Positions 12,368 to 32,880 of a DNA stretch of 32,880 nucleotides are shown piece by piece. The notes below the pieces were generated by a model. It searched no databases. It saw only the letters and a list, made by a program, of their open reading frames with translations, and had not been told where the DNA came from. The translations under genes and the position numbers were made by a program. The DNA comes from a virus (taxonomy: Duplodnaviria > Heunggongvirae > Uroviricota > Caudoviricetes), in IMG/VR virus record IMGVR_UViG_2548876695_000022, positions 1 through 32,880 of that record; one strand, written 5' to 3'. Numbering within the stretch: the stretch's first letter is position 1; each line of letters begins with the position of its first letter.

Positions 12368-12446
12368 TATTTCACCTTGTTTTTGTTGAAAAGACAAAAT
12401 CATCATATATTTATTCAGATAATCTGTTTTTTGAACTACTGCACTT

Positions 12447-15580: not shown

Positions 15581-15637
15581 TCGTGACGGCCGGGAATTTA
15601 TCCGGCTGTAACATCAGTTAATAAGAGTGAGGCTTAT

Positions 15638-15817
15638 ATGACATATATAAACGTCTGCCTGCTGTATTTCTGCACGGTGGTTTGTTGTCTGTTGCTTGTC
15701 AGCGGTGGTTATAAAATTATTCGCAATTATTTTCGAAATAAAATTGATGCAGCTGCCGAGGAAAAGATAAAAAGCGGTGCTGTAATGCCGCAGCCGAAAG
15801 ACTCCGGTCAGATTTAA
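15638..15817 (+). CDS. 59-aa small membrane protein (hypothetical)
   Basis: ATG preceded by a GAGTGAGG RBS; MTYINVCLLYFCTVVCCLLLVSGGYKIIRNYFRNK... has one hydrophobic helix then a basic/charged tail; below the ORF-track size cutoff. Confidence 0.35.
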   Translation: MTYINVCLLYFCTVVCCLLLVSGGYKIIRNYFRNKIDAAAEEKIKSGAVMPQPKDSGQI

Positions 15818-15852
15818 TTTTTTGTGAACCAGAAAAGGAAAGGAGAATATTC

Positions 15853-16098
15853 ATGCCAGAGATTAAAGGCACGGTTACTGAAGAGCTTGTCAAACAGGCA
15901 CTTTATTCTGAAGAAGTGAACCGCGTGCTGAAGGCGCAGGTTCGCAAGGATTTTGAGGCACAAATCGACGCATATGTTGATGAAGTGCTGGCCCGAATGG
16001 TTGGTCGTTCTCCGGCTGAAAACAGCACGGAAAATGAGCCTCAACCCGTAGAGCAACCAGAGCCGGTTCAGCCCGGAACTGACGGTACTATGATGTAA
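15853..16098 (+). CDS. 81-aa acidic hypothetical protein
   Basis: Strong RBS AAAGGAAAGGAG before the ATG; helical N-terminal half and a Pro/Glu-rich C-terminus. Confidence 0.45.
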   Translation: MPEIKGTVTEELVKQALYSEEVNRVLKAQVRKDFEAQIDAYVDEVLARMVGRSPAENSTENEPQPVEQPEPVQPGTDGTMM

Positions 16099-16107
16099 CA
16101 ATACCGA

Positions 16108-16713: not shown

Positions 16714-16914
16714 ATGTATCGAAACATACGGTGCCGACACTGCAATAAGCTACTGGCACGGGCCAGTTTCAGTTATCTGGAAGTAAAATGTCCGCGCTGT
16801 AAAACCCTCAATCAAATCACATCTCCGAGCGCCACAGAGCACCCCACATACACAAGGAAATCCTGTCGTGGGGAACAGAAAGCAAGTCACATCCCGTATC
16901 ATCAGCACGCCTGA
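16714..16914 (+). CDS. com: Com zinc-finger translational activator of mom
   Basis: [35 protein letters not shown] matches the Mu Com zinc-finger pattern (IRCKNCNKLL...CPRCK); the 3' end overlaps the downstream gene as in Mu. Confidence 0.8.
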
Positions 16915-17605
16915 ACTTATTCGCTATAACGACAATATCGTTGGTTATGGCTCCCGTGAGTTGCGGGTTGAGACAATAAGTTGCTGGCTGGCCAGACTGG
17001 TTATCGTCAATAAACATTACAGCCACCGTTTCGTAAATAATTCCTACCTTCATCTGGGTATATTTTCAGAACGGGAACTTGTTGGCGTAATGCAATGGGG
17101 TTACGCCCTTAACCCAAACAGTGGTGCACGCGTCGTAACGGGTACGCAGAACCGAGAATATATGGAGCTTAACCGGCTATGGATGCATGACTGTATGCCG
17201 AGAAACTCCGAATCAAGGGCAATCAGTTACGCGCTCAAGCTAATCAGGCAGCTTTATCCGCAGGTACAGTGGGTTCAGTCGTTTGCAGATGAGCGTTGTG
17301 GCTGTCTTGGTGTCGTGTATCAGGCCAGCAATTTTGATTATGTAGGCAGCCATGAATCAACATTCTATGAACTTGATGGCGAGTGGTATCACGAGATTTG
17401 CAGGAGTGCCATTAAACGAGGCGGACAACGAGGTGAACATCTGAGGGCTAATATCGACAGAGCCAGTGTGCATAAGTTCCGACAGTTTCGTTACATCCGG
17501 TTTCTGAACAAGAGGGCCAGAAAACGCCTCAACACAAAGCTATTCAAAGTCCACCCTTACCCAAAACCACAAACAGTTAAAACTGGTTTGAAAGAGAGTG
17601 AATGA
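16868..17605 (+). CDS. mom: Mom DNA-modification (anti-restriction) protein
   Basis: 245-aa ORF with GTG start overlapping com, in the Mu position after gin; the com-mom pairing is diagnostic. Confidence 0.75.
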
Positions 17606-17644
17606 GCGCTTAAAAACTCATTCTAAAACTCAAAAGAAAAGCGC

Positions 17645-17725
17645 CGATTTAGTATCAAATAAGTTGCGTATCGGCGTTTTTCAGCGGTATCAAATGAAAT
17701 GCAAATCGGTATCAAAAAAATCGCC
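17645..17725. repeat. three direct repeats (G)GTATCAAA in the mom-distal intergenic region
   Basis: Copies start at 17652, 17686 and 17708, plus GTATCGG at 17668; candidate transposase end-binding sites of the Mu-like element or an operator for the downstream operon. Confidence 0.4.
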
Positions 17726-17747
17726 GCGCTATAAACAGCTAAAGCAG

Positions 17748-18404
17748 ATGCGGGAAACGCTGGCAAAAGCTGACCTTCCCCCGCGTAAGCGCCAGCGCCT
17801 TTTATGGCGTATTGCAAAGCTGGGCATTGTCGCAGCGGCAAAACGTCACCAGCGCCAGCAGGCGGCCCCGGACGGTACGCCGTGGGAGCCGCGCAAGCGT
17901 GGCAAAGGGAAGATGTTAAAAGGGCTGCCCAAGCTGTTGGCCGTGCGCGAAATGCCGGAGATTCAGGGGGTAAGAATTTACCTCAAGGGCGGGAACTACC
18001 GGAACGGGACGAAGCCCATCGCGGCGGGTCTGGTCGGCGCGGTCCAGCAGGACGGCGCACGGATCCAGATGAAAGCCAGTAACGCCCCGCGTAAGCCGCA
18101 GGCTGACAAGCCAGCGCTACCGCGACAGGCCAAGCGTCTGCGGGCGCTGGGTTACAAAACCCGCAAGGGCAAACGCTGGGTTAAGCCGTCCAGCAAGCAA
18201 ATCATGGAAACCATGAGCATGGCCCAGGCGGGATTACTGATTCGAAAACTGAAAGGCACACCCTCAAAACGCACATGGACCATTGATATTCCTGGGCGCG
18301 TTTTTCTGGGGGTGAGCAACGACGAATTTAACCAAATTATTGCGCGGCAAATGCAGGCAATCGGCTTCGGCTGGGACGTCAACGCGCAGCAAATCAGGGG
18401 GTAA
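17748..18404 (+). CDS. virion morphogenesis / tail completion protein (P2 gpS / Mu G-like)
   Basis: Pattern RKRQRLLWRIAK...QQAAPDGTPWEPRKRGKG...IPGRVFLGVSNDEF resembles the gpS-type tail completion family; start uncertain (ORF track begins with GTG at 17598; ATG at 17748 chosen, no strong RBS). Confidence 0.45.
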   Translation: MRETLAKADLPPRKRQRLLWRIAKLGIVAAAKRHQRQQAAPDGTPWEPRKRGKGKMLKGLPKLLAVREMPEIQGVRIYLKGGNYRNGTKPIAAGLVGAVQQDGARIQMKASNAPRKPQADKPALPRQAKRLRALGYKTRKGKRWVKPSSKQIMETMSMAQAGLLIRKLKGTPSKRTWTIDIPGRVFLGVSNDEFNQIIARQMQAIGFGWDVNAQQIRG

Positions 18405-18406
18405 AA

Positions 18407-19549
18407 ATGACCTGGCCGAATGTCAACGTCAGTCAGAAAAACCGCTTCAACGGCACAACGAACGACGTCGAGCGCGTCATCCTCTTTGTGGGTTACGGCG
18501 ACACTAACATCGGGAAAACCCAGTCGCTGAATACCGGCAGCGATCTGGATAAAGCCCTGGGCGACAAAGACAGCCCGTTAAAAAATATGGTGGCCGCAGC
18601 GGCCAATAACGCCGGTCAGAACTGGTTTGCTTACGTGCATGTGCTGGCAGAACCAGACAAGGAAGCCGAGGGCTATAAACCAGATGAAGACTGGATGAAC
18701 GCGGTCAAGATGGCCCAGAGCGTGGCATCCGTGGAAGGGGTTTTCCTGGTATTTGATACCGACGAAGTGGCAACCATCAACCGTGCAACGGAAATGCGTA
18801 TCACCTTGCAGGCTAATTATGGGCGATTTATCTGGTTTGGCCTTGCGATAGGCGGGCCGAAACAGGGCGAAGCATGGGCCGATTATGTGACGCGCCTGGC
18901 ACAACTCCAGGACGGTATTGCGTCACCGGGTGTGCAACTGGTCCCGCGTCTGTGGGGCAATGAACCCGGCGTCCTGGCCGGTCGCTTGTGTAACCGTTCG
19001 GTGACGGTGGCAGACAGCCCCGCCCGCGTTGCAACCGGCGCAGTCACCGCGCTGGGGCGTGACAAACTGCCGGTTGACGGGACGGGAGCCGAAATTGATC
19101 TGTCCGTGTTGCAGTCCCTGCAGGTGAACCGCTACAGCGTGCCGATGTGGTATCACGACTATGACGGCATCTACTGGGCTGACGGTCGCACCCTGGACGT
19201 TGAAGGCGGCGATTATCAGGTCATTGAAAACGTGCGCGTGGTTGATAAAGCATCCCGACGCGTCCGTCTGCGTGCTATCCCCAAAATTGCCGATCGTTCA
19301 CTGAACAGCACACCGGGCAGCATTGCCGCGCATGAAACCTATTTCGGCAAGCCGCTGCGTGAAATGGCGATTTCAACCCAGATCAATGGCGTCGAATTTC
19401 CGGGCGAAGTGAAGCCACCAAAGGACGGTGACATCACCATCACCTGGACCAGTAGCGAAGCGGTACAGATTTACCTTGTGGTTCGACCGTATGAGAGCGC
19501 GAAAGAAATCAGCGTCAGCATCGAACTGGACACCTCACTGGAGAGCTAA
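18407..19549 (+). CDS. putative tail sheath protein
   Basis: 380-aa ORF directly upstream of a tube-sized ORF in a tail module; assignment by size and position only. Confidence 0.45.
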   Translation: MTWPNVNVSQKNRFNGTTNDVERVILFVGYGDTNIGKTQSLNTGSDLDKALGDKDSPLKNMVAAAANNAGQNWFAYVHVLAEPDKEAEGYKPDEDWMNAVKMAQSVASVEGVFLVFDTDEVATINRATEMRITLQANYGRFIWFGLAIGGPKQGEAWADYVTRLAQLQDGIASPGVQLVPRLWGNEPGVLAGRLCNRSVTVADSPARVATGAVTALGRDKLPVDGTGAEIDLSVLQSLQVNRYSVPMWYHDYDGIYWADGRTLDVEGGDYQVIENVRVVDKASRRVRLRAIPKIADRSLNSTPGSIAAHETYFGKPLREMAISTQINGVEFPGEVKPPKDGDITITWTSSEAVQIYLVVRPYESAKEISVSIELDTSLES

Positions 19550-19552
19550 TCA

Positions 19553-20008
19553 ATGACTGAACGTATTAGCGGCGGATCGTTCGATGTGAACTACGACAGC
19601 ATCATGATTCACGTCGAAAACGCCACCGTCACCATTACGGATAACAGCGCCGTTGCGCAGTCGCGTGGCATCCCGAACGGCCACACGAAAGGGTCAGTTT
19701 CGGCGGATGTGGAAGTCGAAGTCGATTCCCAGAGCTTTAAAAAGTTTACCGCCGTTGCCCGTGCCGCAGGTTCCTGGCGAGCCATTCCGGCAAAGGACTT
19801 TTTGTTCTATGCCAATGCGGGGGATGACGAAGAAAAAATCGAGGTGTTTGGCTGTGTTCCGACGCTGTCCGACATCGTCAACATCAACCCCAACGAGGCC
19901 AGCAAAACCACGAAAAAAATTAAATTCATGGTGACAAGCCCGGACTTTGTCGCGATTGACGGCGTGCCGTACCTGTCAGCCCGTGACACTCGAGATCTGA
20001 AAGGCTGA
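19553..20008 (+). CDS. putative tail tube protein
   Basis: 151-aa ORF following the sheath-sized gene; assignment by size and position only. Confidence 0.45.
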   Translation: MTERISGGSFDVNYDSIMIHVENATVTITDNSAVAQSRGIPNGHTKGSVSADVEVEVDSQSFKKFTAVARAAGSWRAIPAKDFLFYANAGDDEEKIEVFGCVPTLSDIVNINPNEASKTTKKIKFMVTSPDFVAIDGVPYLSARDTRDLKG

Positions 20009-20012
20009 CACG

Positions 20013-20324
20013 ATGATGAACGGAGAAACGTCACTGCTTGAAAAGCTGTTGCTTATCGGGGCCGTGATCGGCCTGGGGCAACTGATGGTCAGCAATGAGC
20101 GAATCACAACCCGTCTGCTGGTCGGGCGGATGATTCTGGGATCTGCAGTCGCACCGCTGGCCGCAATCCCGCTGCTGAAATTCCCCGATATGCCGGAACT
20201 GGTCGTCATTGGGCTGGCCTGCGCCCTGGGCATTCTGGGAAGTGCGTTTATTGAGGCGGGGCTAAAGCGCTGCCTGGACATGTATATCAAGCGATGGGGG
20301 AGCAAGCGCAATGAAACTGAGTGA
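20013..20324 (+). CDS. holin (three predicted transmembrane segments)
   Basis: 103 aa with hydrophobic stretches LLLIGAVIGLGQLMV, LLVGRMILGSAVAPLAAIPLL and LVVIGLACALGILGSAFI and a charged C-terminus; immediately upstream of the endolysin. Confidence 0.6.
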   Translation: MMNGETSLLEKLLLIGAVIGLGQLMVSNERITTRLLVGRMILGSAVAPLAAIPLLKFPDMPELVVIGLACALGILGSAFIEAGLKRCLDMYIKRWGSKRNETE

Positions 20325-20649
20325 AAAACAGCAACTTTTTACGGTGATGATCGCCAGCCTGATTCATTTTGCCCAGGAAAAAGGCTATCGCCTGACGTTT
20401 GGCGAAGCGTACCGCACGCCGGAACAGGCCGCGCTTAACGCAAAAAAAGGGAGCGGCATTACTAACAGCCTGCATACCCAGCGCCTTGCGGTGGATTTTA
20501 ACCTGTTTATTAACGGCGAATACCAGACCGACAGCGCCGCATATCGCCCCCTGGGCGAATACTGGGAATCTATCGGCGGATCGTGGGGTGGACGTTTCAG
20601 TAAGCCGGACGGGAACCATTTCAGTCTTGAGCATAACGGGGTTCGCTGA
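20311..20649 (+). CDS. endolysin, peptidase M15-type zinc peptidase
   Basis: 112 aa with H...D...H zinc-site spacing (HTQRLAVDF ... DGNHFSLEH) characteristic of M15 cell-wall peptidases; overlaps the holin 3' end. Confidence 0.7.
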   Translation: MKLSEKQQLFTVMIASLIHFAQEKGYRLTFGEAYRTPEQAALNAKKGSGITNSLHTQRLAVDFNLFINGEYQTDSAAYRPLGEYWESIGGSWGGRFSKPDGNHFSLEHNGVR

Positions 20650-21032
20650 TGCGCAATTTGCTGGGTCTTTTGCTGATTCTGGCAGCTGCAATGTCAGCGG
20701 GCTGGCAGGCGCATGACTGGCACGACGCAAAGCTGAAACTCGCTGCCAGTGAAGCGGCAGAACAAACGCGCCAGATTGTTGTTGAGGTGACACAGCAGTC
20801 TGGTGAAGCGCTGGAAGCAAAACTCGCGGAGCTGAGGGCCAATGAAATTCATACGGAACGGGTTATCCGCACGGAAACCATTAAATCGGTTTTTAGCAAT
20901 GTTTGTGCTTCTGATGATTACGTCCGGTTGTTCAACGAAAGTGCAGATCAAGCCGAACGAAAATTATCAGGAAAACCAGCTGGCACTTTGCCCGGTCACG
21001 TTGCCACGTCTGGCCGGACCGACCGGAAGTGA
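20649..21032 (+). CDS. i-spanin (Rz-like)
   Basis: N-terminal transmembrane segment MRNLLGLLLILAAAMSAGW followed by a charged coiled-coil-like region; ATG overlaps the endolysin stop (TGATG). Confidence 0.6.
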   Translation: MRNLLGLLLILAAAMSAGWQAHDWHDAKLKLAASEAAEQTRQIVVEVTQQSGEALEAKLAELRANEIHTERVIRTETIKSVFSNVCASDDYVRLFNESADQAERKLSGKPAGTLPGHVATSGRTDRK

Positions 21033-21138
21033 CTTTGACGCGGCGCTGAAAGCCTACCGGCTGATGTATACCGACTGCGCCGCCCGACATAACGCCCTGG
21101 TGGGCATCATTCGACAACGTAAGGAATTAGCACAATGA
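20842..21138 (+). CDS. o-spanin (Rz1-like lipoprotein), overlapping i-spanin in the +1 frame
   Basis: Signal peptide plus lipobox-like LLMITSG-C; starts inside the i-spanin gene and extends beyond it; alternative start at 20899. Confidence 0.55.
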   Translation: MKFIRNGLSARKPLNRFLAMFVLLMITSGCSTKVQIKPNENYQENQLALCPVTLPRLAGPTGSDFDAALKAYRLMYTDCAARHNALVGIIRQRKELAQ

Positions 21139-21404
21139 GCAAATCGAAAAAAATCGCCATGACCGTGGCGGGCGTAAATCTGAGCTTTGAGCCGAATAAA
21201 ACCGCGTTCAACAACCTGCTTAACGAAATGACCATGACCAATAAAGTTGCCCCAATGGTGACGTATCTGGGCCGCATTGTTGATGCCGAGTGTAAAGAGG
21301 CGCTCAACAAGCTGATGGAAGATTATCCGGGCTGCGAAATGCAGATCGTCGAGAAGGTTAACGAAATTTACTCCCCAAAACTTGAGATCGAAGTAAAAAA
21401 CTGA
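21135..21404 (+). CDS. tail assembly chaperone (P2 gpE / lambda G-like)
   Basis: 89-aa ORF just upstream of the tape measure; ends on a slippery A_AAA_AAC heptamer with a -1 frame open to the tape-measure start. Confidence 0.6.
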   Translation: MSKSKKIAMTVAGVNLSFEPNKTAFNNLLNEMTMTNKVAPMVTYLGRIVDAECKEALNKLMEDYPGCEMQIVEKVNEIYSPKLEIEVKN

Positions 21405-21592
21405 CGGCGCGGGTAGCGGCCATTCGCACGAATGCCCTGGAGCAATACCTTGCCTTGCGCCGCTATTACCTCCCGCACGAAGACGACGACGAAGAAAGCA
21501 TCGCCCGCGCCCTGTGGCTGGATGAATATTTCGCCCAGACCCGCGCCAGTAAGACGGCGGAAGGGATAGCAATCGCATTTAACGGAAACTGA
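21395..21592 (+). other. programmed -1 ribosomal frameshift site and extension of the tail chaperone
   Basis: Heptamer A AAA AAC at 21395-21401, seven nt before the zero-frame stop; the -1 frame reads KKLTARVAAIRTNALEQYLALRRYYLPHEDDDEESIARALWLDEYFAQTRASKTAEGIAIAFNGN to a TGA at 21590-21592, 1 nt before the tape-measure ATG (21594). Confidence 0.5.
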
Positions 21593-21593
21593 T

Positions 21594-23708
21594 ATGAGCC
21601 ACCTGGATTTTACCCTGAGCCTGATCGATAAGCTGACGCGGCCATTAAAGACGGCCCAGTCTTCGCTGTCTGGCTTTGCTGAAAAATCGCAGGAGTCTTT
21701 TACAAAAATCGGGATTGGTGCGGCGGCTGTCTGGGGCGTGGCGCAGTCCATCGCGGGCGTGGTGGGTCCGGCGTATGAGATGAACGCCGCGCTTGCAGAA
21801 GTGGGTTCCAAAGGCGTAGCAGAGGACGCGCTGAAGCGTATGTCCGGCGAAGCCATGCGATTCAGTATGCGCTACGGCAAAGGGGCCGTTGATGTGGTCC
21901 GGTCAAGCTACGCGATGAAAGGCGCAATGGCGGGCCTGTCCGATCTGGACCTGCCCCGCGTTACCATCGCGGCCAATACCCTGGCCGCAGGCGTCAAGGC
22001 CAGCGGCGAAGAGGCAGGCGAATACATCGGCGCGATGGCGTCACGTTTCAACGCGGAATTGTCCAGTCTGGGGCATGTGCGTTTTGCCGAAGAGCTGGCA
22101 GGAAAAACGGCGTACATGGTGCAAAACTTCGGCGTGAAAATGCAGACCATGCAGGAGCTTATCGAGGGGACGAAAAGCGCCGGTGCTGACTTTGGCGTCA
22201 GCCTGGATGAACAGTTCGCCGTACTGGGTACGCTTTCGCGCACGCTGGGTACTGAGGCCAGCGGGATCTACGAGCAGTTTTTACGCAGCGCCCCGGCTGC
22301 CGCTGAAAAGCTGGGTATGAGCTTTGTCGATGCCACCGGAAAAATGCTGCCGATGGGCGACATTCTGCAAAAACTCCAGAACAAATACGGGCAGAGCATT
22401 GAAGGGAACGTCAAGGCACAACAGGCGCTGGATGCCGCGTTCGGTGGTGGTGCTGACGTTATCAAAAAGCTGTACGGCCAGCAGGATAAATTAAACCGCA
22501 GCATCACCGAGCTGGGCCGAAATGACGGGATGAAACGCGCCCAGGAAATGGCCGAACGAATGGCTGAGCCGTGGGAACGTATCAAAGCGACATTCTTTGC
22601 CATTCGCGTGGCGATTGGTAACACGCTGTTCCCTATCCTGTCGCCGCTGATGAACCGTATTGCCGACGTGGGGACAAAATTTGCCCGCTGGCTGGATATG
22701 TTCCCGAATATTGCCCGCTGGCTGGGTTACATCACCCTGGGCGTGCTGTCCTTCGGGTTGGCTGGGGCGGCGGTCAATATCGTGATGGGGGTCTTTGGCT
22801 TCACCATGACAGGGCTGGCCGCAATTGCAAAAGTGCTGGGCGGGGCATGGAAACTCCTGTTATGGACGCTCAACCTGTTGCGTCCGTCCCTGCTGACGAC
22901 GCGCATCGGTCTGGCTGCATTGTGGATCCAGTCAAAATTACTGGCGCTGTGGACGGGCGTCTGCCGCATCGCGCTTGCTGCATGGAATATCGCGTTAAAG
23001 GCCGGAGCCATTGCCATGCGGGTTTACGGTGCGGCGACCATGTTTGCCGGGGCGGCAATGCAACTCCTGATGAGTCCGATCACTCTGATCGTTGCCGGGC
23101 TGGCACTTCTGGCCGTGGGGGTCTGGTATGTCATCACCCACTGGGAAGAACTGGCGGCAGCAATCATGGATACGTCGGCTTTTGCCTGGGTGATGTCGGT
23201 CGCTGAACAGGTAGGCCAGGTGTTTGCGCAGGTCTGGCAGTCCATCACAGACGGCTGGGCCGTGGTGGTTGATTTCTTTGCCGGTCTTTCCCCGCTTGCC
23301 ACCTTTGAAGGGTTCGCACAAACCATCGGCGGGGTATTCAGCAAACTTTTTGACGTCCTCAAAAATACCTTTGCGTCTACCTATAACTGGATTGTCGAGA
23401 AGTTAAACAAGATCCCCGGCGTAAACATCGACCTGAAAACCGTTTCGCCACCGGCAGCGGCTGCCGTTCCGGCAAATGCGGTCATTCCTGACAGTGCTGC
23501 AGGTTCATCGAAGCTAAACAGCCCGTCCGTGCTGACGGGGAACCGAATTAATGCAGGCATCCCACGCGGCGGCCTGATGAGTCAGGTTAAAAACGACAGC
23601 AAAACCGCTGTTGATAACCGTAAAACGTGGGGCGATACCTACATCAACGCCCCCAATGGAATCACCCCGGCCCAGCTGGCTGAATGGCAGGAGCTTAACG
23701 CAGGATGA
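21594..23708 (+). CDS. tail tape measure protein
   Basis: 704 aa with a helical N-terminal region, central hydrophobic segments and position after the frameshifting chaperone. Confidence 0.8.
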   Translation: MSHLDFTLSLIDKLTRPLKTAQSSLSGFAEKSQESFTKIGIGAAAVWGVAQSIAGVVGPAYEMNAALAEVGSKGVAEDALKRMSGEAMRFSMRYGKGAVDVVRSSYAMKGAMAGLSDLDLPRVTIAANTLAAGVKASGEEAGEYIGAMASRFNAELSSLGHVRFAEELAGKTAYMVQNFGVKMQTMQELIEGTKSAGADFGVSLDEQFAVLGTLSRTLGTEASGIYEQFLRSAPAAAEKLGMSFVDATGKMLPMGDILQKLQNKYGQSIEGNVKAQQALDAAFGGGADVIKKLYGQQDKLNRSITELGRNDGMKRAQEMAERMAEPWERIKATFFAIRVAIGNTLFPILSPLMNRIADVGTKFARWLDMFPNIARWLGYITLGVLSFGLAGAAVNIVMGVFGFTMTGLAAIAKVLGGAWKLLLWTLNLLRPSLLTTRIGLAALWIQSKLLALWTGVCRIALAAWNIALKAGAIAMRVYGAATMFAGAAMQLLMSPITLIVAGLALLAVGVWYVITHWEELAAAIMDTSAFAWVMSVAEQVGQVFAQVWQSITDGWAVVVDFFAGLSPLATFEGFAQTIGGVFSKLFDVLKNTFASTYNWIVEKLNKIPGVNIDLKTVSPPAAAAVPANAVIPDSAAGSSKLNSPSVLTGNRINAGIPRGGLMSQVKNDSKTAVDNRKTWGDTYINAPNGITPAQLAEWQELNAG

Positions 23709-24040
23709 GTACCGAACCGTTATACATCGACCTTTTGATCACTGACGGCGATTTCACGCTGGACAGCGGCAACGAGCCGCGCCGTTGCGATAACCGCGAC
23801 AGCATCACCCAGGACATTATTCACAGCATTCTGGAAAGCGGTATCACCACCCGCCTGATCGGTGAACGCAGCCCGACAATGCGCGGTGACGTGCTGACGC
23901 AACTGTCCTTACTGGTGGAAAGCGACGAACGTCTGGTCCCAGGAACCATAGTGATCACCGAAGAAACCCTTTCGAGGTTGTATATCACGGCGGAAACCTA
24001 CGATTTCGGCCCTGTCAGTACAGAGGTTAACTATGACTGA
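23705..24040 (+). CDS. baseplate wedge protein (P2 gpW / T4 gp25-like)
   Basis: 111 aa, start overlaps the tape-measure stop; size and position before the J-like gene. Confidence 0.55.
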   Translation: MSTEPLYIDLLITDGDFTLDSGNEPRRCDNRDSITQDIIHSILESGITTRLIGERSPTMRGDVLTQLSLLVESDERLVPGTIVITEETLSRLYITAETYDFGPVSTEVNYD

Positions 24041-25217
24041 GAAACCCGACGTTGATTTCGAAAAGGTACTGAATGACAGCGGGATGCCCGCGACAGAGGC
24101 CGAAATTACGGCGGCATTTAAAGCCACCGTGCAGGCGGAAGGGTTCGTCACAAACACGTCGAGAATGTCACCTTTCTGGCGGCTGATTTCGAAGATTGTC
24201 ACCACGCCGGTGTTATGGCTGCGTGCGGCGCTGATCGATGTGGTTCTGCGCAATATGTTTGTTGCGACTGCCACCGGTCCCATGCTGCGCCTGCTGGCCT
24301 GGGCGGTTCATATCGAGCCTAAACCGGCCAGTGCTGCCGCTGGCGTGCTGCGATTCTTCAAGCTGAATGCGGCGGATGTGGTCGTCGTGCCTGCCGGAAC
24401 ACTGGTGCAAACAGAGCGCATTAACGGCGTGGTTTACGTGCTGGCCGTGAATGAAGACGTGACACTGCCTGCCGGGGTTGAAAGCGGGCTGGTTCCCGTC
24501 ACGGCGACCGGCACCGGCAGCGGCTATAACCTTGCGCCAGGCTATTACCGGATCTTACCTGTTGCAGTAGCTGGAATCGCCAGCGCGGTCAATGAGGACG
24601 AATGGCTGATTACGCCAGGGGCTAACGAGGAAAGCGACGACGAGCTGCGCGACCGCACCCGCAACCAGTTTAATCTGGTGGGGAATTACCACTCTGACGC
24701 TATCTACCGCAGCATGATTGCCAGCGTGCTGGGCCTGAGCATTGATCGCATCTACTTTTTGCACGATGCCCCGCGTGGGCCGGGTACGGCAAATGCTTAT
24801 CTGTTACTGGACAGCGGCGAAATATCACAGCCCTTTATTGATGCGGTTAACGATTATGTGAATACCCAGGGCCACCACGGACACGGTGATGATCTGCAGT
24901 GTTATGCCATGCCGGAAACCAGTCACACCCTGGCGGTTACTGTCTATGTCAAAAGCGTGGAAAACATGGAAGCGGAAGACCTGAGCGCGTTAAAAACCGG
25001 TATTACCGACCTGATTCGTTGCGCGTTTCGCGAGAACGCCAATTACGACGTTAAAAAGACGCAGCCCTATTCGCGCTATTCCTTTTCGAATCTGGGCCGC
25101 GAGATCCACAAGGCTTTTCCGGTTGTCGATTCACTGCATTTTTCACTAACGGATATTGTCAGCGAACTGTCGGTCCCGCGCCTGTCAGGGTTAACGGTGG
25201 AGATTGAAAATGACTGA
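24033..25217 (+). CDS. baseplate J-like protein
   Basis: 394 aa between the W-like and I-like genes, as in the P2 V-W-J-I-H-G operon. Confidence 0.6.
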   Translation: MTEKPDVDFEKVLNDSGMPATEAEITAAFKATVQAEGFVTNTSRMSPFWRLISKIVTTPVLWLRAALIDVVLRNMFVATATGPMLRLLAWAVHIEPKPASAAAGVLRFFKLNAADVVVVPAGTLVQTERINGVVYVLAVNEDVTLPAGVESGLVPVTATGTGSGYNLAPGYYRILPVAVAGIASAVNEDEWLITPGANEESDDELRDRTRNQFNLVGNYHSDAIYRSMIASVLGLSIDRIYFLHDAPRGPGTANAYLLLDSGEISQPFIDAVNDYVNTQGHHGHGDDLQCYAMPETSHTLAVTVYVKSVENMEAEDLSALKTGITDLIRCAFRENANYDVKKTQPYSRYSFSNLGREIHKAFPVVDSLHFSLTDIVSELSVPRLSGLTVEIEND

Positions 25218-25803
25218 GTTTTCGAAGTTGCTTTCCGGTCTGAAATTGCCGTCGTGGCTGAACAAAGGCGACCCCGCCAGGCTGTTGCGTGGCAGCGTGA
25301 AGTTCTGGTCGCAGGTGTACGGGTGGATCACCTGGCCGTTAAAGCAGTTTGACCCGCTGGTTTGCCCTGAGCCGCTGTTGAACCTGATTGCCTGGGAGCG
25401 CGACATCGATCGGTTTAAGGGGGAGCCGCTCGACATCTTCCGCAAGCGGGTGAGTTACGCATTTATCAATGCGCAGCAGGCCGGAGAGGTGGCGGGCTTT
25501 ATTGCCATTTTTGAGCGACTGGGGATTGGTTACGTTGAATTACTGGAACGGCAGGACGGACTCGACTGGGACGTGATTGTCGTTCGAGTGACAAGCAGCC
25601 AGGTTGCGGAAAATGGCGATCTCCTGCTGGAAATCATTCGCAAATATGGGCGCACATGCCGCCGTTACCAGTTTGAAGTAATCGACACCCTGCCACTGAA
25701 TATCAATATTGGCTGGTATCAGGGGGAATATATTTGCTGGCCTGCCACCCTGGGCGATGTGAATAACCAGTCAGAAGCAACATATAGCGCAAGTTTGAAG
25801 TAG
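25210..25803 (+). CDS. tail protein I-like (P2 gpI)
   Basis: Motif [16 protein letters not shown] resembles P2 gpI CPANLLPWLAWAFSVD; ATG at 25210 with GGTGGAG RBS (ORF track begins at TTG 25204). Confidence 0.6.
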
Positions 25804-25814
25804 AGGGAATATTA

Positions 25815-27779
25815 ATGTCACAGGCCGTCATTACAAAAGCATTTGCAGAGTGGAAAGCCCAGCAGGCAATTAATAACCAGCCCGTCACGCTGGATGAGTT
25901 TATTTTTGCTTATATTCCGGGGCTGGATGCTGACAAGCCGATTAATAATACTGAAACAACGCCAGCGGAAGATAAAATAGTTTGTCGTCAGGCGGTGAAT
26001 AAAGCCGGTGTTGTGAATGAAAACTCTGTCGTTTATTCCGTTACCCTGGGGGCGGATGTGGGCGATTTTGATTTCAACTGGATCGGGCTGGCAAATAAGG
26101 CAACGGGTACACTGGCGATGATTATTCACGCCCCGACCCAACGAAAAATTAAAAACGCAGACGGTCAGCAGGGAAACGTTCTTGTTCGTTCCATGCTGAT
26201 GGAATACAGCGGAGCCAGGGAAGCGACCGAAATTAACACTCCGGCAGAGACATGGCAGATTGATTTTACTGCCCGACTGGTGGGAATGGATGAACGCCAG
26301 CGCCGGGAAAATATCGATCTGTATGGCGCAGCGGCATTTTTTGATTCGGGCTATCTGGTCGCAAAGTCCGGCAATCAGTTTTTTGTCACAAAGGGGGCGG
26401 GATATGTCGCCGGATTGCGTGCCGAATTGCCCGCAAACTTCAATATCACAGTATCCGCGAAACCGACAAAAATCTGGCTTGATGTGAGCTGGACCGGGAC
26501 GTTAACAAGCGAATGGGCTGTACAGAGCAAAATTACTGTTGCTGCAGATCTTGCCGATTATGTGCTGGGCGGTGTGCAGCATTATGTCTTTGCGGTGGCG
26601 AGTATTGATGCTGCCGGAAATATCACTGACCTGCGCCCGAAAGGCACGCTAAATGACCAGGCGGCCAGCGATGCGCTGAAAAAGCATGAACAATCCCGAA
26701 ATCACCCTGATGCATCAACCAGTGAAAAGGGTTTTGTGCGGTTAAGCAGTGAAACGAACAGTGATTCCGAAGCGATGGCCGTCACGCCAAAAGCATTAAA
26801 AGCGGTGAATGAGAATGCAAATGGCCGCGTTCCGGCATCACGAAAAGTGAACGGCCATGCCCTGAATGGAGATATCAATGTCACTTCACGGGATATTTTT
26901 GACGGCCAGGTTATAGCGATTGGTGCAAATAAGAATCTGGATGATTACCAGGTACCGGGGCTTTATTTTCAGGAAGCGAACAACAATACCAGTGCAGCAA
27001 TGAATTACCCGGAGAATAGCGCGGGTTCTCTGATGGTACTGAGAGGTGCCGGAGTCACTCAGGTTTATCGTGTGTACAACAGCTCGCGCAGTTATTCGCG
27101 CAGCAAGTATTCAACGCTGGCATGGACGCCGTGGATGCCAGAAGATTCTTACCCTGTCGGCGCACCTATCCCCTGGCCATCGGATGTTACCCCGACAGGG
27201 TACGCCTTAATGCAGGGGCAGCCCTTTGATAAAGCGGTCTATCCATTGCTAGCGATTGCCTATCCTGCGGGGATTATCCCGGACATGCGAGGCCAGACGA
27301 TTAAGGGTAAACCGAACGGTCGCGCGGTACTCTCGTATGAACAGGATGGTGTTATATCGCATACCCACGGAGCCAGTATTTCCGATACCGATTTGGGGAC
27401 GAAATACACCAGCTCTTTTGATTATGGTTCAAAACCAACAACCAGTTTTGACTACGGCAATAAATCCTCCACTGAGGGTGGGTGGCACGCACATAACTTT
27501 CGTTATTGCGCAACGTCTGCATACCGGGATACCCCCGGTCAGGGGCTGGGGATGCATTCGTCTAATGTTTCATGGGCGGCGGGAGATCGCATTGAGGGAA
27601 GCGGTAATCATGCTCATGTGACATGGATCGGCCCTCATGATCACTGGGTGGGTATTGGTGCGCATAACCATTATGTGGTTATGGGCTATCACGGACATAC
27701 AGCGACCGTTCATGCCGCAGGAAATGCGGAAAATACCGTTAAAAATATTGCGTTTAACTACATTGTGAGGCTTGCCTGA
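25815..27779 (+). CDS. tail fibre protein (P2 gpH-like)
   Basis: 654 aa; [52 protein letters not shown] matches the conserved P2 H motif (EHEQSRRHPDAS...KGFTQLSSATNSTSETLAATPKAVK); His-rich C-terminal region. Confidence 0.8.
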
Positions 27780-28366
27780 TGACTTTTGAAATGACCGGAG
27801 AAAACCGGACAATTACCATCTATAACCTGCGTGCTGATACAAATGAATTTATCGGGAAAAGTGATGGGTTTATCCCTGCTAATACCGGTTTGCCTGCTAA
27901 CAGTACCAATATTGCGCCACCGCCGATGAAAGCCGGTTTTGTCGCTGTATTTAATTCTGCGTCAGAAAAATGGTCACTTGTTGAAGACCATCGCGGGAAA
28001 ATTGTTTACGACATTCTCACCGGGAAATCCATCACGATTGATGAATTAGGTCAGTTACCTGACGACGTTGTTTCCGTTGCGCCGGAAGGCCATTTTGTTA
28101 AATGGAATGGTAAAAAATGGGTGCATGATGCTGACGCAGAAAAAACGGCACAGATTACACAGGCTACACAGCAAAAAGACAGTCTTCTGGCGCTGGCTGC
28201 ATCAAAAATTGCCCCATTACAGGATGCTGTTGATCTGGATATTGCAACGGAAGAGGAAACAGCGCTTTTGCTGGCGTGGAAAAAATACAGGGTTTTGATT
28301 AATCGTATTAAGCCAGAAGATGCGCCAGATATTGACTGGCCGGAGGTTCCGGGCGATGTGGCGTGA
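27779..28366 (+). CDS. tail fibre assembly chaperone (lambda Tfa / P2 gpG-like)
   Basis: 195 aa, [26 protein letters not shown]...GLPANSTNIAPP...ALLLAWKKYRVLINRIKPEDAPDIDWPEVP, highly characteristic of Tfa proteins; ATG overlaps the fibre stop. Confidence 0.85.
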   Translation: MTFEMTGENRTITIYNLRADTNEFIGKSDGFIPANTGLPANSTNIAPPPMKAGFVAVFNSASEKWSLVEDHRGKIVYDILTGKSITIDELGQLPDDVVSVAPEGHFVKWNGKKWVHDADAEKTAQITQATQQKDSLLALAASKIAPLQDAVDLDIATEEETALLLAWKKYRVLINRIKPEDAPDIDWPEVPGDVA

Positions 28367-29084
28367 GTCGGTTATAAAGATTGCTGATGATATGGGGGCG
28401 CTGGCCTGTTCAATTGTGCCAGCGCATCCCTGGGTTTACGGTCTGGGACAGAACACCGATTCAGGCGGTTATCTCAGTCCGGCCAATGCGCTGGGATACC
28501 TTGCTAAAAAGCTGTTATCCGGTGGCGGTAGCGGTAGCGGTGATGTCATCGTCATGATGGTGGCGGAGAATACCCACGATGCTTTTATGCAGGGACTGAA
28601 TAAACTGTCCACCGTATTTCCGGCCCCGGTATTTACGCAGGTAAGCCGTATGGCCGCAGCCGCCGCAGAACTCAGCACGGTAAAAATGCAGTTGCCGGTT
28701 AAAGCCGATGTATTGCCAGCCAGTGCGCCGTTATCAGTCTCAACCAACCGGCTGGCGCTGAATGCCCAGCGTGTTGCCGCCGCGCAGCTGGCCGCCGCAG
28801 TCAGTACCACCACAACAGATCTAAAAAACCAGGTGACGGGATTTATTCAGGAACGGGCCGGTTTGCTGTCCTCGCTCAGCCAGGGACTGGACGACCTGAA
28901 AGCCGCCAGTGCGAATATTTTTGCATTCAGTTACAGCGGGAGTTATGCCGTTGCTGCCGCAGAATTGCTGAAAGGCATCCCGCAAACAACGGCAGTGCAT
29001 ACCGCCGCGATGATGTTTATCGGGGATTCGTTATCTGACTTAGGGAAGATGCTACATGAGCCAGACCGCATTACTCGCGCTTGA
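28356..29084 (+). CDS. hypothetical Ala-rich protein (tail-module position)
   Basis: Start chosen at ATG 28356 with a GGAGG RBS (ORF track begins at 28320); no recognisable motif. Confidence 0.4.
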   Translation: MWRESVIKIADDMGALACSIVPAHPWVYGLGQNTDSGGYLSPANALGYLAKKLLSGGGSGSGDVIVMMVAENTHDAFMQGLNKLSTVFPAPVFTQVSRMAAAAAELSTVKMQLPVKADVLPASAPLSVSTNRLALNAQRVAAAQLAAAVSTTTTDLKNQVTGFIQERAGLLSSLSQGLDDLKAASANIFAFSYSGSYAVAAAELLKGIPQTTAVHTAAMMFIGDSLSDLGKMLHEPDRITRA

Positions 29085-29598
29085 TGGTGAAGGGATCGCC
29101 ATGCAGAACATGCTGGTTTCACCTTCCATGCAGTTTCAGGAAAAGGACCAGTCGGGCCAGACATCGAGCACGGCCAATGCTGAACAGGGTATCAAGGCCA
29201 AAGAGCTGCGCGTATCGGGTCTGGTGACATTCGACGACGAAGCCGTCTTACAGCGGCTTTTCCAGCTGGCATCCGCGACCGAAGCCAGCGGCGCACTGAA
29301 AAAGTACCGCGTCGCCAATGCGACGGCGACGGCTATCAACCTTCGTGAAGCCACGTTTACCGGTCAGATTGATGCCGTACCGCAGGAGGATCGCCTTGCC
29401 TGGCAGGTAAGTTTCACCCTGCGTGAAAAAGGCAGCGTCCCGGAAAAACGACAGGCCCGAAAAGGCAACGCGACGGCCAGCACCAAGCAAACAGGGGCAA
29501 AGGGCGCGGGTCCGGCTGCCGGAGCTGATGAGCCAGCCGACAAAATGAGCTGGTTTGAAGAAAAGGTCTTAAAGCCGGTCAACGATGCGCTGGGGTAA
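29056..29598 (+). CDS. hypothetical protein (tail-module position)
   Basis: 180-aa ORF overlapping the upstream gene end; no recognisable motif. Confidence 0.4.
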   Translation: MSQTALLALDGEGIAMQNMLVSPSMQFQEKDQSGQTSSTANAEQGIKAKELRVSGLVTFDDEAVLQRLFQLASATEASGALKKYRVANATATAINLREATFTGQIDAVPQEDRLAWQVSFTLREKGSVPEKRQARKGNATASTKQTGAKGAGPAAGADEPADKMSWFEEKVLKPVNDALG

Positions 29599-29605
29599 TT
29601 AAACG

Positions 29606-31330
29606 ATGAAACCAATTAAACGCCTGTACCTTTCCTCTGATCCGGTCCATCTGATTGACTGCAATATCGTGCTGGAGCTGAACGCGTGCGGTCGGGGGTT
29701 TATTACGGCGGGGACAGAGACAGATTACACCGGCAAAATGGTGCGTATCGATGTTGGTTATGATGGTCTGGTCCTGCGCTGGTTTACCGGGTACGTCGAA
29801 CGGTCACAGCCTGCTGATAATGGAACATGCCGGTTGTTCGTGCGTGAGCTGGTCGGCATCTTTGATAAATTGTGGCCGTGTTCTTTCCAGCATCCAACGT
29901 TGCGCCAGATTACTGACTGGATAAGTGAGCAAAGCGGGCTGACCGTCACAACGCCGGTCGGCGCTGCTTATGCAGATAAACCGATCCCCCACTTTACGCA
30001 CAGCGGCACGGGCTATCAGCTTTTTGCCAGTCTGGGCCGTGCATTTTCAGTGACGGATTATCTTTGGTATCAGTTGCCGGACGGGGATGTCTTCGTCGGC
30101 GCTGCGGAGCATAGTCTTTTTGCGGGAAAACCAGTGGAGATCCCGCACGAATTTAGCCAGGAATCGGCAGGCGGAAATTCAATGGTTGTGCCAATGATTC
30201 AGAGCCTGCGCCCGGGTGCGGAGGTAAACGGCCAGCGGCTGAACCAGGTCCGGCTAAATAACGATGACATGGCAATTACCTGGCAGCCCCGCAACAAAGC
30301 CAACGGCCAGCCATTGCAAAAATCACCCATTCAGCGGCAGATTGAAAACGCATTCCCGGAGCTGGCAAGCGGCCTGCATCTTCCAAGATTCGCTAGGGTG
30401 GAAGCGCCAAGCGAGGATGTTTCAGGGGGGGATATTGCCGATCCATTCCGCCCACGCTATGCCGTGGATCTCCAGCTGCTTGACGAAGACGGCAAGCCAG
30501 CCGCAAATACGCCGATCTATTCTGCCGTTCCACTACCTGTGCCAATGGCGGGCAGCGAGTCAGGAATGTTTCAGTTTCCGCCCCCTGGCACGCTGGTTGA
30601 AGTTGGGTTCACTGAGGGGCGGCAGGATAAGCCCTTTGTGCGTCAGATTATGGCGGAGGGTCATAACCTGCCAGCGGTTAAACCCGGTGAGCAGTTGCAG
30701 CAACAGCGCGATGGTGTATCGCAGCGCGTGACGGTTGCCGGAGACTGGGAACGCCAGACGGATCAGACAATCCGCGAAAACTCCATGACTCGCGAAGTCA
30801 CCACCGACGAAGAGATCCGCAAAGTGGTTGCCCGTGAAACTACGGTCCAGGCAACAGATAAAACAACCGTGCTTGGCACGGCCACACTTCTGGCCGGGGC
30901 GGTCGTTCATATCAGCGAGGGGGATTACAGCGTCGGCACATCCGGCAACCTGACAGTAACCTGCAGCAAGGACAATTCCGTCAGTGTTGGCCGGAACGTG
31001 AAACGGGATGTCGCGGGCAATGTTACAGACGACGTGAAAGGGGATGTCACGTCAAACGTCAGCGGCGCACTGACTGAAAAAATCAGCGGCATTCGCCGAA
31101 GTGTGGCCCAGGCGCAACAACTGATTGCCCCGGTGGTAAAGCTGGGAAGCGAAGAGATTAACGTCCTGACACTGCTCACCGACACCCTGGACGTGGTGAG
31201 GGAGCTGGCAGAGACTGCCGCATCACATACTCACCCCAATACGGGGGCCAGTGGGCAGGCGGCGCAGTTCACCGCAACGGCCAATAAAACCGGCACATTG
31301 AAAAGCAAATACGGCCCCCTGATAGCCTGA
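29606..31330 (+). CDS. baseplate hub / central spike fusion-like protein (gpD-like N-terminus, beta-helical spike-like C-terminus)
   Basis: 574 aa; C-terminal region has repetitive V-x-G-x-V-T/S segments (GRNVKRDVAGNVTDDVKGDVTSNVSG) and an HxH tip motif (SHTHPNTG), as seen in spike apices. Confidence 0.5.
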   Translation: MKPIKRLYLSSDPVHLIDCNIVLELNACGRGFITAGTETDYTGKMVRIDVGYDGLVLRWFTGYVERSQPADNGTCRLFVRELVGIFDKLWPCSFQHPTLRQITDWISEQSGLTVTTPVGAAYADKPIPHFTHSGTGYQLFASLGRAFSVTDYLWYQLPDGDVFVGAAEHSLFAGKPVEIPHEFSQESAGGNSMVVPMIQSLRPGAEVNGQRLNQVRLNNDDMAITWQPRNKANGQPLQKSPIQRQIENAFPELASGLHLPRFARVEAPSEDVSGGDIADPFRPRYAVDLQLLDEDGKPAANTPIYSAVPLPVPMAGSESGMFQFPPPGTLVEVGFTEGRQDKPFVRQIMAEGHNLPAVKPGEQLQQQRDGVSQRVTVAGDWERQTDQTIRENSMTREVTTDEEIRKVVARETTVQATDKTTVLGTATLLAGAVVHISEGDYSVGTSGNLTVTCSKDNSVSVGRNVKRDVAGNVTDDVKGDVTSNVSGALTEKISGIRRSVAQAQQLIAPVVKLGSEEINVLTLLTDTLDVVRELAETAASHTHPNTGASGQAAQFTATANKTGTLKSKYGPLIA

Positions 31331-31535
31331 CAAAAAAGCGGCATAACCGCACACCTCACCAGACACCACAGAACGCGCCACAGCAGGCGCAAAGATTAAA
31401 GGTCGCCACCGTGCGGCCTTTCTTTCGTTCGTTCAACAGCGGCCCACAGCGTAAGCGACAGCAGGCAAACGGAAGCGGATCCAGGACGGAAACGGCGCTA
31501 CACCGCACCCGCCTGCGCAGTTTGGATCATAAAAA

Positions 31536-31824
31536 TTTTGCAAAAGAAATTTTGTGCAAAGCACCCCGCCAGCCTGCGCCGCTGCTGGGCTTTTGCATCC
31601 TGCGGGCGTTGCACTCTGCGCAAAGATTTGCAGCACTTTGCAAAAGTCATCGCGCCGCCAGCTACTAACTGACTGGATAACATGATGTTTTTAAAAGGAT
31701 CGTTTTGGTTTCCGTGACGATCAAAATGATTAGGTGGTATCCGATGGTTTTCGGGGGCGGATATCGTGAAGCCTTGTGCGGTGAGGGCTGGCGGCTAGTT
31801 TGCTTTGATTTGGGTTTTGCAAAA
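31536..31824. repeat. array of palindromic TTTTGCAAAA-type motifs in a non-coding spacer
   Basis: TTTTGCAAAA at 31536-31545 and 31815-31824, TTTGCAAAAG at 31637-31646, with variants TTTTGTGCAAAG, CTTTTGCAT and GCGCAAAGATTTGCAGCA; no convincing ORF. Confidence 0.4.
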
Positions 31825-31914
31825 TGATGCACGAAGTTTTGATAAAAGGATCTCTAGCTAAGGGGGAGGGGAACGTATAAAAACCCCCGCCCTCTGGGTG
31901 ATATTTTGTTCTAT

Positions 31915-32880
31915 TTATAGAAGTTTACTTACTGAAATCAGTTTGGGTGATTTAATGCCAATCTCACATAATGTTGTATGATGTGCTTCACGCTCAGTTT
32001 CCTGATAATAGGTGGCTATCCATTCCGTATTTTCACTAACAATGCTATGTATAAAAGAAAAGTAGGGAACATCTACAGATGATAACGAATGGCCGATGAT
32101 GATGATTTCGTCTACGTTGCTGAGATTTTTAAAAAATTTAGCGCTGTCAGCAATGACTTTTTCAGTATTCTTAAAAGAACAAGTGAAGTATTTATTAATA
32201 GTCTGCTTTCCCATTTCATAAGAGTGATCGTAATTATCAGCCATACACTGACGCCACTCTTCAAGTTCTTCATCGGTTGCATTTTCGGGCGGGACTGCTT
32301 CCTTTTCTTCAAAGTTGATAGGGTCAATACCATGACCTAAAATCAACTGTTGATCTGATGATGCTTTTCCATGGATATATAAAATTTGTCTATCATCAAT
32401 ACCATAGTATTTCTGAAGAGTCTCAGTATAATTAAAACTGATAAAGATAGAGTCAGAATCGATACGCAATCTTTTATTTAAATTAAGTTCGGGGTAGTTA
32501 ACCTGCAATATAAATGACTTGAATTGTGTTAAAAGCCCTTCGGTTAAATTTTTTAGTATACGTTCCATTTCAATGCTTAATGAGCCCCAGTCCTTGTCAC
32601 GAAAATCAGGGCTGCTAATTTGGGGTAAAAGATAGCAAAACTCTTCGAGCACTGACTCTGTATCCAGACCCGCTAAGCTGTTTTCGAAATCAGACCAAAG
32701 AAAATGTTTTGACTTATCAACTGCGGAAAGTTTAGGGGGTAAGTCAGTAAATCCCATAAAATCAACCAAGTGATCGTAAATGTCTTGGTCTTTCTTCCGA
32801 AGATAATCCCCAAATGAGAAATAGCTCGTGTCAAGTTCGTGATGCAGATCAAACCCATTCCCGATGATGTATAGCTTCAT
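31915..32880 (-). CDS. AbiH-like abortive-infection protein
   Basis: 321 aa, N-terminal MKLYIIGNGFDLHHELDTSYFSFGDYL matches the AbiH-family motif as remembered; visibly AT-rich compared with the flanking phage genes; ATG is the last 3 nt of the window. Confidence 0.6.
   Translation of the reverse strand: MKLYIIGNGFDLHHELDTSYFSFGDYLRKKDQDIYDHLVDFMGFTDLPPKLSAVDKSKHFLWSDFENSLAGLDTESVLEEFCYLLPQISSPDFRDKDWGSLSIEMERILKNLTEGLLTQFKSFILQVNYPELNLNKRLRIDSDSIFISFNYTETLQKYYGIDDRQILYIHGKASSDQQLILGHGIDPINFEEKEAVPPENATDEELEEWRQCMADNYDHSYEMGKQTINKYFTCSFKNTEKVIADSAKFFKNLSNVDEIIIIGHSLSSVDVPYFSFIHSIVSENTEWIATYYQETEREAHHTTLCEIGIKSPKLISVSKLL

Follow-up and report, generated by a model that had tools for sequence, protein, structure and literature searches.

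The DNA analysed here is a 32,880-nt stretch of a tailed-virus record (IMG/VR IMGVR_UViG_2548876695_000022, positions 1 to 32,880; the whole stretch is referred to below as the window), and the subject of the analysis is a module of contractile-tail and lysis genes at positions 17748-31330, all of which lie on the + strand with hardly any intergenic space. Genes were identified by profile matches to Pfam and PHROGs, and their products were paired with the proteins of the Haemophilus phage HP1 by BLASTP. The module contains the following features:

17748-18404 from the ATG (homology from 17734), +, gpS-like tail-completion gene (Neck1), 5'-truncated; Phage_tail_S, phrog_26
18407-19549, +, tail sheath of HP1 orf23 type, 380 aa; DUF2586, phrog_907 "tail sheath" (E 2e-162), 52% identity to HP1 orf23
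19553-20008, +, tail tube, 151 aa; HP1 Orf24 family, 51% identity to HP1 orf24
20013-20324, +, holin; Phage_holin_3_2 (E 9e-21)
20311-20649, +, endolysin, M15 metallopeptidase; Peptidase_M15_4
20649-21032, +, Rz-like inner-membrane spanin; phrog_1152 (E 2.5e-37), hydrophobic N-terminal segment in the translation
20842-21138, +, Rz1-like outer-membrane spanin; phrog_2425, and phrog_456 Rz-like spanin (E 6e-6)
21135-21404, +, tail assembly chaperone (analogue of P2 E and lambda G); Phage_TAC_10 (E 1e-30), 39% identity to HP1 orf26
to the TGA at 21590-21592, +, -1 frame extension of 63 codons; DUF6890 (E 3e-22)
21594-23708, +, tape measure; PhageMin_Tail, 30% identity to HP1 orf27 over 721 aligned columns
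23705-24040, +, small baseplate protein in the position of P2 W; DUF2590, 64% identity to HP1 orf28
24033-25217, +, baseplate J-like protein; Baseplate_J, 49% identity to HP1 orf29
25204-25803, +, baseplate I-like protein; Tail_P2_I, phrog_1228, 52% identity to HP1 orf30
25815-27779, +, tail fibre; Pfam tail-collar N-terminus, fibre repeat and collar domain, N-terminal 376 aa 42% identical to HP1 orf31
27779-28366, +, tail fibre assembly protein; Caudo_TAP (E 2e-41)
28356-29084, +, HP1 orf33-like protein in the tail/baseplate block; phrog_1677, 29% identity to HP1 orf33
29056-29598, +, baseplate complex protein of HP1 ORF34 type; PF25759 (E 1e-53)
29606-31330, +, baseplate hub/central spike of HP1 orf35 type, 574 aa; phrog_2258 over its full length (E 3e-276), 41% full-length identity to HP1 orf35

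All the tail, lysis, fibre and hub genes that an earlier first-pass annotation, made from the sequence alone, had listed for this region were found where it had put them and on the + strand. The lack of head genes that it reported was borne out by the gene tables with Pfam families (contigs covering window 1-28404) and by Pfam scans of the remainder, which revealed no capsid, portal or terminase gene within the window. Among the lysis genes, the frame of the Rz1-like spanin starts within the Rz frame and ends beyond it, and the stretch ...LLMITSGC in its translation was read, by eye, as a putative lipoprotein signal. The chaperone open reading frame (ORF) ends in GAA GTA AAA AAC TGA and thereby carries the canonical -1 slippery heptamer A_AAA_AAC at 21395-21401, while the open 63-codon -1 frame runs to a stop two bases ahead of the tape-measure ATG. 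The slippery site and the extension would together give a long chaperone of the E'/GT type, and the frameshift suggested by the first-pass annotation is thus real at the level of sequence. The hub/spike protein showed, besides its full-length match, weak hub, gp5 and gp5/VgrG beta-helix matches, and comparison of the sheath and the hub with Protein Data Bank (PDB) sequences gave weak or chance matches only. Tail genes and a full lysis cassette with every reading frame intact, and no head genes in the window, are what a domesticated R-type tailocin would be expected to show, that is, a tail-only cluster with its own lysis genes that produces headless contractile particles killing competitors.

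The position of the lysis genes and of the hub, which the first-pass annotation had taken as an unusual gene order, turned out not to be aberrant. The order of the corresponding genes in HP1 (U24159) is orf21 (gpR-like), orf22, orf23, orf24, hol, lys, orf25, orf26 and orf27-orf35, and 13 of the 17 proteins of the module pair collinearly with HP1 orf22-orf35 (29-64% identity, E 1e-15 to 1e-156), the holin, endolysin and Rz-like genes occupying the same position in HP1 and in the window. As judged from these alignments, lysis genes between the tube and chaperone genes and a hub gene in last place are the canonical layout of the HP1-type Peduoviridae. The sheath family is represented in 76 phage records, and the 40 listed, which include HP1, HP2, K139, Kappa, phiO18P, F108 and ESSI-2, are genomes of 28-38 kb except for one short fragment. 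At the nucleotide level, 87% of the module aligns with 94.4% identity to the Salmonella phages SI7 (NC_049460), SW3 and SW5, which have complete 30-kb genomes and belong to the genus Irrigatiovirus of the Peduoviridae; water used for irrigation and aquaculture was the source from which these phages of Salmonella were isolated, and their morphotype is listed as unclassified (PMC6783827). Both this similarity to isolated phage genomes and the placement of the lysis genes, which is that of every HP1-type phage, speak against a tailocin.

The same applies to the occurrence of the module in complete Escherichia coli genomes. When window 16800-31400 was compared with these genomes by megablast, 18 of them gave a single alignment of 100.0% identity, and each alignment started at base 935 of the query, that is, at window 17734. 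Base-by-base comparison with E. coli 2011C-4251 (NZ_CP027388, locus L002) detected 0 mismatches in the 15,147 nt of window 17734-32880, where 17734 corresponds to L002 18001, while the 34 bases upstream of 17734 are unrelated to L002. The homology with the intact prophage thus covers 17734-32880 and exceeds the module itself. Directly upstream of the tail block, L002 carries genes for an ogr/delta-type zinc finger, portal, large terminase (terL), GPO-type scaffold, P2-family capsid, small terminase (terS), head completion and gpR, the portal and large terminase genes lying on the opposite strand; the block from portal to gpR measures 6.9 kb. The gpR-family tail-completion gene belongs to PF06891, and the homology search with its product found a Salmonella cluster representative that is 98% identical. 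Further left, a replication endonuclease, a Dam methylase, cox, a repressor and an integrase adjoining yegR follow. The prophage is flanked between yegR and yegQ by a 22-bp direct repeat of the att core, AAAAAATAAGCCCGTGTAAGGG (L002/L010), which we take to match the att core of P2; this is presumably also the site at which K-12 carries a P2 remnant. The early region of L002 contains an IS3-family element (L002 1212-2425; NZ_CP027388 220644-221857), and a 925-aa hypothetical protein is encoded at L002 7705-10482 between the replication gene and ogr, in a typical P2-like cargo/defence slot.

A second nucleotide search with the 20.6-kb block from portal to hub showed that all 18 complete E. coli genomes with the tail module contain it, with coverage and identity of 100%; the carriers include O45:H2, O103:H2, O111:H2 and others. 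A nineteenth complete genome, that of strain SW071610 (NZ_CM129858.1 1670837-1681079), contains a deletion derivative that retained the portal and terminase genes and covers 50% of the block in two pieces with 100% identity, and appears as ordinary decay of the prophage. No tail block without head genes was found among the complete E. coli genomes searched. In the 18 complete genomes the mismatch-free DNA is therefore part of a prophage with both head and tail genes, and in no complete genome does it form a tail-only element; such zero divergence from the intact prophage left no time for domestication into a tailocin.

The point at which the homology to the intact prophage begins coincides with the end of another mobile element, and the features of this boundary are:

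17606-17733, +, right end of a Sp18-like Mu-type prophage, downstream of mom (16868-17605; Mom family, E 8e-77)
17734-17737, strand not applicable, AACA, presumed right copy of a 4-bp target duplication; first bases with renewed homology to the intact prophage, and only the right copy lies within the window

Upstream of 17734 the window contains mom, com, a Gin-type invertase near 182-nt inverted repeats and tail genes of Mu gp36-gp48 type. Three RGTATCAAA repeats lie within the right end of the Mu-like phage (17651-17659, 17686-17694 and 17708-17716); they are the inverse of the TTTGATACC repeats found at the left ends of related Mu-like copies and are presumed, from their arrangement, to be transposase-binding sites. 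Alignment of the window with four independent Mu-like insertions in other E. coli genomes showed that the sequences are identical through ...ATCGCCGCGCTATA (17733) and unrelated from there on; the last bases common to the five right ends are ...CGCGCTATA, which end at window 17733. The left ends of three relatives all begin with TGTAACCAGGTGAATCATTTGATACC, the start common to them being TGTAACCAGG, and these three insertions are flanked by the 4-bp duplications CACC, ATCA and AGCA, respectively. A 4-bp duplication was also annotated by the depositors of LC727895. The length of the related elements is 38,750 bp in one copy and 39,337 bp in another. Since five right ends and three left junctions align in this way, the Mu end was placed at 17733 with a 4-bp duplication. 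By analogy with phage Mu itself, which makes a 5-bp target duplication, the end could also have been sought at the CA dinucleotide at 17736-17737, and this candidate was ruled out by the five right ends and the three left junctions. An apparent 4-bp target duplication and a right end of ...CTATA rather than ...CA were seen as a property of the Sp18-like Mu phages (loci L006, L007, L009 and L022-L025). Considering the common element ends and the 4-bp flanking duplications in the relatives, a Sp18-like Mu phage lies in the prophage, and AACA is taken as the right copy of its target duplication.

The first base of the module, 17748, is situated 15 bases beyond the right end of the Mu-like phage, and the insertion point in the intact prophage is 21 bases past the stop codon of the gpR-like gene. 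In the intact copy, a GTG overlapping this stop codon (GTGA) opens a 231-aa gpS-like frame, while the ATG at 17748 is the start assigned to the gene in the intact copies by the Prokaryotic Genome Annotation Pipeline (PGAP). The N-terminal region encoded between the two is conserved in SI7, the annotation of which uses the GTG start; the N-terminus of the intact copy, M-IRGELNQQQLK, aligns with MN-IRMGIDKEDLK of HP1 orf22; and with the extra N-terminal residues the Phage_tail_S match reaches back from profile position 14 to 3. On these three grounds the GTG was regarded as the native start of the gpS-like gene. The comparison indicates that the Mu insertion strips the gene of its native GTG and first ~9 codons and severs it from the upstream DNA. 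Thus, the tail that the first-pass annotation called complete-looking does have its genes in place, with the qualification that the gpR-like gene lies beyond the breakpoint and the gpS-like gene has lost its native beginning. Gene callers report in-frame ORFs that fuse the Mu end to gpS, starting at 17694 (236 aa, 17694-18404) or at 17598 (17598-18404). The left boundary of the module is consequently a Mu end inside a gpS-like gene and not a regulatory region or a host gene, as would suit a tailocin; together with the 18 intact genomes, this makes a tailocin extremely improbable.

Considering these results, we are confident that the module is the tail-and-lysis half of an HP1-type, P2-family E. 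coli prophage that was recently disrupted by a Mu-like phage, and that its tail-only appearance is due to the Mu insertion and the window edge. According to this explanation, a temperate myovirus of HP1 type, near Irrigatiovirus, would have integrated at the P2-type att site between yegR and yegQ, and a Sp18-like Mu-type phage of ~39 kb would later have transposed into its late gene block, 21 bases past the gpR-like gene. The window would then start with the right 17.7 kb of the Mu-like phage, and 17734-32880 would represent the tail, lysis and cargo part of the prophage. The genes for portal, terL, scaffold, capsid, terS, head completion and gpR are expected beyond the Mu-like phage, at a distance of ~21 kb leftward from the first base of the window. 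The predicted left junction would read ...GAACCAGCAACA/TGTAACCAGGTGAATC..., and the genes from gpR to portal would follow on its left side; the DNA preceding the Mu-like left end is predicted as ...GCTGAACCAGCAACA, followed leftward by the gpR-like and head genes. As no substitution has accumulated in 15 kb relative to the intact copies, the insertion into the prophage was probably recent. Judging from the general biology of P2 and Mu, the composite is probably no longer able to make virions: its late genes have lost their connection to the genes and any promoters upstream, the 5' end of the gpS-like gene is missing, and the excised DNA of ~73 kb would exceed a capsid of ~30-34 kb. Of the two origins that the first-pass annotation had held equally possible, tailocin and disrupted prophage, the latter is supported, while the 18 intact genomes and the Mu end speak against the former and against the equal weighting. 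It had also stated that cognate capsid, portal and terminase genes beyond the Mu-like element would argue against a headless element; such genes are contiguous with the module in every intact relative, and in the source genome their presence is predicted.

The junction of the Mu-like phage with gpS can be followed in other assemblies. The 236-aa fusion ORF, which is specific to this junction, was found in 111 blocks of the assembly collection, whereas the 268-aa version has no record there. Contig AASSWI010000010.1 (124,284 bp) of GCA_012556485.1 agrees with the window in each of the 20,711 nt compared. The Mu right end is located in it at ~47,717, that is, 47.7 kb of the contig lie upstream of the junction, and ~8.4-9.0 kb of non-Mu DNA is expected to the left of a Mu of 38.75-39.3 kb. 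The leftmost protein of the window was found in 21,406 blocks, and the matches returned were other Mu-like copies only.

An alternative with the same first steps is that the Mu-like phage inserted as described and the head half of the prophage was later deleted, inverted or moved by rearrangement, so that the module would be a prophage remnant. It is generally known that replicative transposition of Mu generates adjacent deletions and inversions, the left junction lies outside the sequence that was read, and one complete genome, that of SW071610, has a deletion derivative of the same prophage. On the contig AASSWI010000010.1, however, the ~8-9 kb of non-Mu DNA to the left corresponds to about the 6.9-kb portal-to-gpR block plus flank, and the tail half is free of any decay. 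Such a remnant is therefore considered unlikely, and the head half of the interrupted prophage is very probably still present in the source genome. Several points nevertheless weigh against the explanation by an otherwise entire, Mu-disrupted prophage. The sequence of the right junction was absent, as an exact pattern, from the genome and viral contig collections, as was the predicted left junction from the metagenome contigs, and the junction was absent from all complete RefSeq E. coli genomes. The left junction and the head half of the source genome lie outside the window and are thus predicted, and Mu replication can delete or invert adjacent DNA, by which the head half may have been lost or relocated. 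Finally, the copies called intact, such as L002 with its IS3 element, may not all be viable.

To the right of the module, the window contains two further features:

31398-31421, +, terminator-like hairpin after the hub gene; 9-bp stem with 5 G-C pairs and T-rich tail, consensus match only
31915-32880, -, AbiH-family abortive-infection gene, full length; AbiH (E 2e-60), also present in L002, where the att core and yegQ come next

The hairpin is likely, by its position and form, to mark the end of the late operon. The abiH gene was regarded as cargo inside the prophage because the equivalent of attR (~33046, ~166 bases past the window end) lies beyond it. The edges of the window fall on start codons: its last base belongs to that of abiH and its first base to that of a Mu gp36-family gene. 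Scans of the window for Rfam families and tRNAs gave no matches; the P2-type late promoter motif TGT-N12-ACA occurred at chance frequency in it and in none of the intergenic gaps, and the matches of the sigma-70 promoter scan were fewer than the shuffled expectation.

A further possibility concerns the expression of the orphan tail/lysis block, which might be transcribed by read-through from mom, so that inducing the Mu-like phage would also release free tails of HP1 type and bring a second lysis system into play. Late transcription of mom proceeds toward the junction, and between mom and the gpS-like gene the terminator scan detected nothing convincing on the + strand. We consider this scenario very unlikely; if it were true, the composite would act as an accidental, Mu-driven tailocin in which the fusion ORF at 17694-18404 could supply a working tail-completion protein.

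The Mu-like arm of the window showed some features of its own. The 182-nt inverted repeats at 11425-11606 and 12628-12809 (78% complementary) enclose ~1 kb with a fibre-assembly gene on the - strand (11846-12478), which comes after the fibre gene at 10900-11811, and the Gin-type invertase (12872-13432; Resolvase/HTH_7) adjoins the repeats. By its organization, this segment with the invertase resembles a G segment, by the inversion of which the Mu-like phage would switch its host range, and some draft assemblies break in or near the inverted-repeat region (L004). Between the invertase and com/mom, the region 13523-16100 has a lower G+C content (0.43-0.50) and carries cargo genes for a 685-aa SASA-esterase/DUF6645 protein, DUF1378 and DUF826; its nucleotide matches were other Mu-like insertions only, at 84%. 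We assume that genes of these three families follow the stx genes in lambdoid Shiga toxin (Stx) phages (nanS-p region).

The module should thus be labelled not as a tailocin but as the distal half of a prophage of P2/HP1 type into which a Mu-like phage has inserted. This matters little beyond annotation, and disruption of a prophage by Mu is an already known kind of event. Nevertheless, it is a clean example of how phage-into-phage transposition and a window edge produce a tail-only view, and of Sp18-like Mu phages disabling resident prophages in E. coli of the Stx-producing (STEC) type; the Mu/gpS junction with its 111 blocks could serve as a lineage marker.

Compared with known systems, the closest counterpart is the intact prophage of E. 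coli 2011C-4251, which equals window 17734-32880 without mismatch and has the same right neighbours, abiH and then yegQ; in the intact E. coli copies the gpR-like gene is directly followed by the gpS-like gene, whereas in the source copy the two are separated by Mu-like DNA of 38.75-39.3 kb. SI7 shares the gene set and order from the tail-completion gene to the hub, and then the cargo slot and the attachment region. It differs in being a free 30-kb genome that includes the head genes, while a Mu-like phage interrupts the copy described here; the other 13% of the query found no alignment, where divergence of the tail fibre would fit the different host, and the cargo after the hub consists of two small hypothetical genes in SI7 versus AbiH here. 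HP1 (Hpunavirus, Haemophilus) is collinear with the module gene for gene, with its lysis genes between tube and chaperone and its hub last, but similarity to the HP1 genes in the corresponding positions was not detectable for the holin, endolysin, spanins and fibre assembly protein, and the C-terminus of the fibre and the host are different. P2 belongs to the same family and is alike in the Ogr/Cox-type regulators, the P2-family capsid, gpR/gpS, J and I, the N-terminus of the H-like fibre and the E/E'-type frameshift chaperone. In P2, however, the lysis genes precede R and S, and the tail genes form the separate blocks V-W-J-I-H-G and FI-FII-E-T-U-D, whereas the sheath and tube here are of the short HP1 type and not FI/FII, and the hub is a single 574-aa protein.

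The R-type pyocins and P2-derived tailocins resemble the module in having contractile tail genes beside lysis genes and no head genes in the stretch examined. They are, in contrast, tail-only in every strain, occupy a fixed host locus, have their own regulators and are diverged from phages, while the module here is identical to a part of a complete prophage and is bounded by a transposon end. The Sp18-like Mu phages of STEC, such as Mu_JNE122137 in a Stx1a phage (LC727895), are like the element found here in their right end, mom/com, invertase and cargo, and also in inserting into other prophages, with a 4-bp target duplication that is presumed for the element here. Of 10 Sp18-like Mu phages in closed STEC genomes, 6 were situated within another mobile element, and several of the Stx phages carried such an insertion (PMC10132054). 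The difference lies in the target, which is an HP1-type prophage here versus a Stx phage or a chromosomal gene in those cases.

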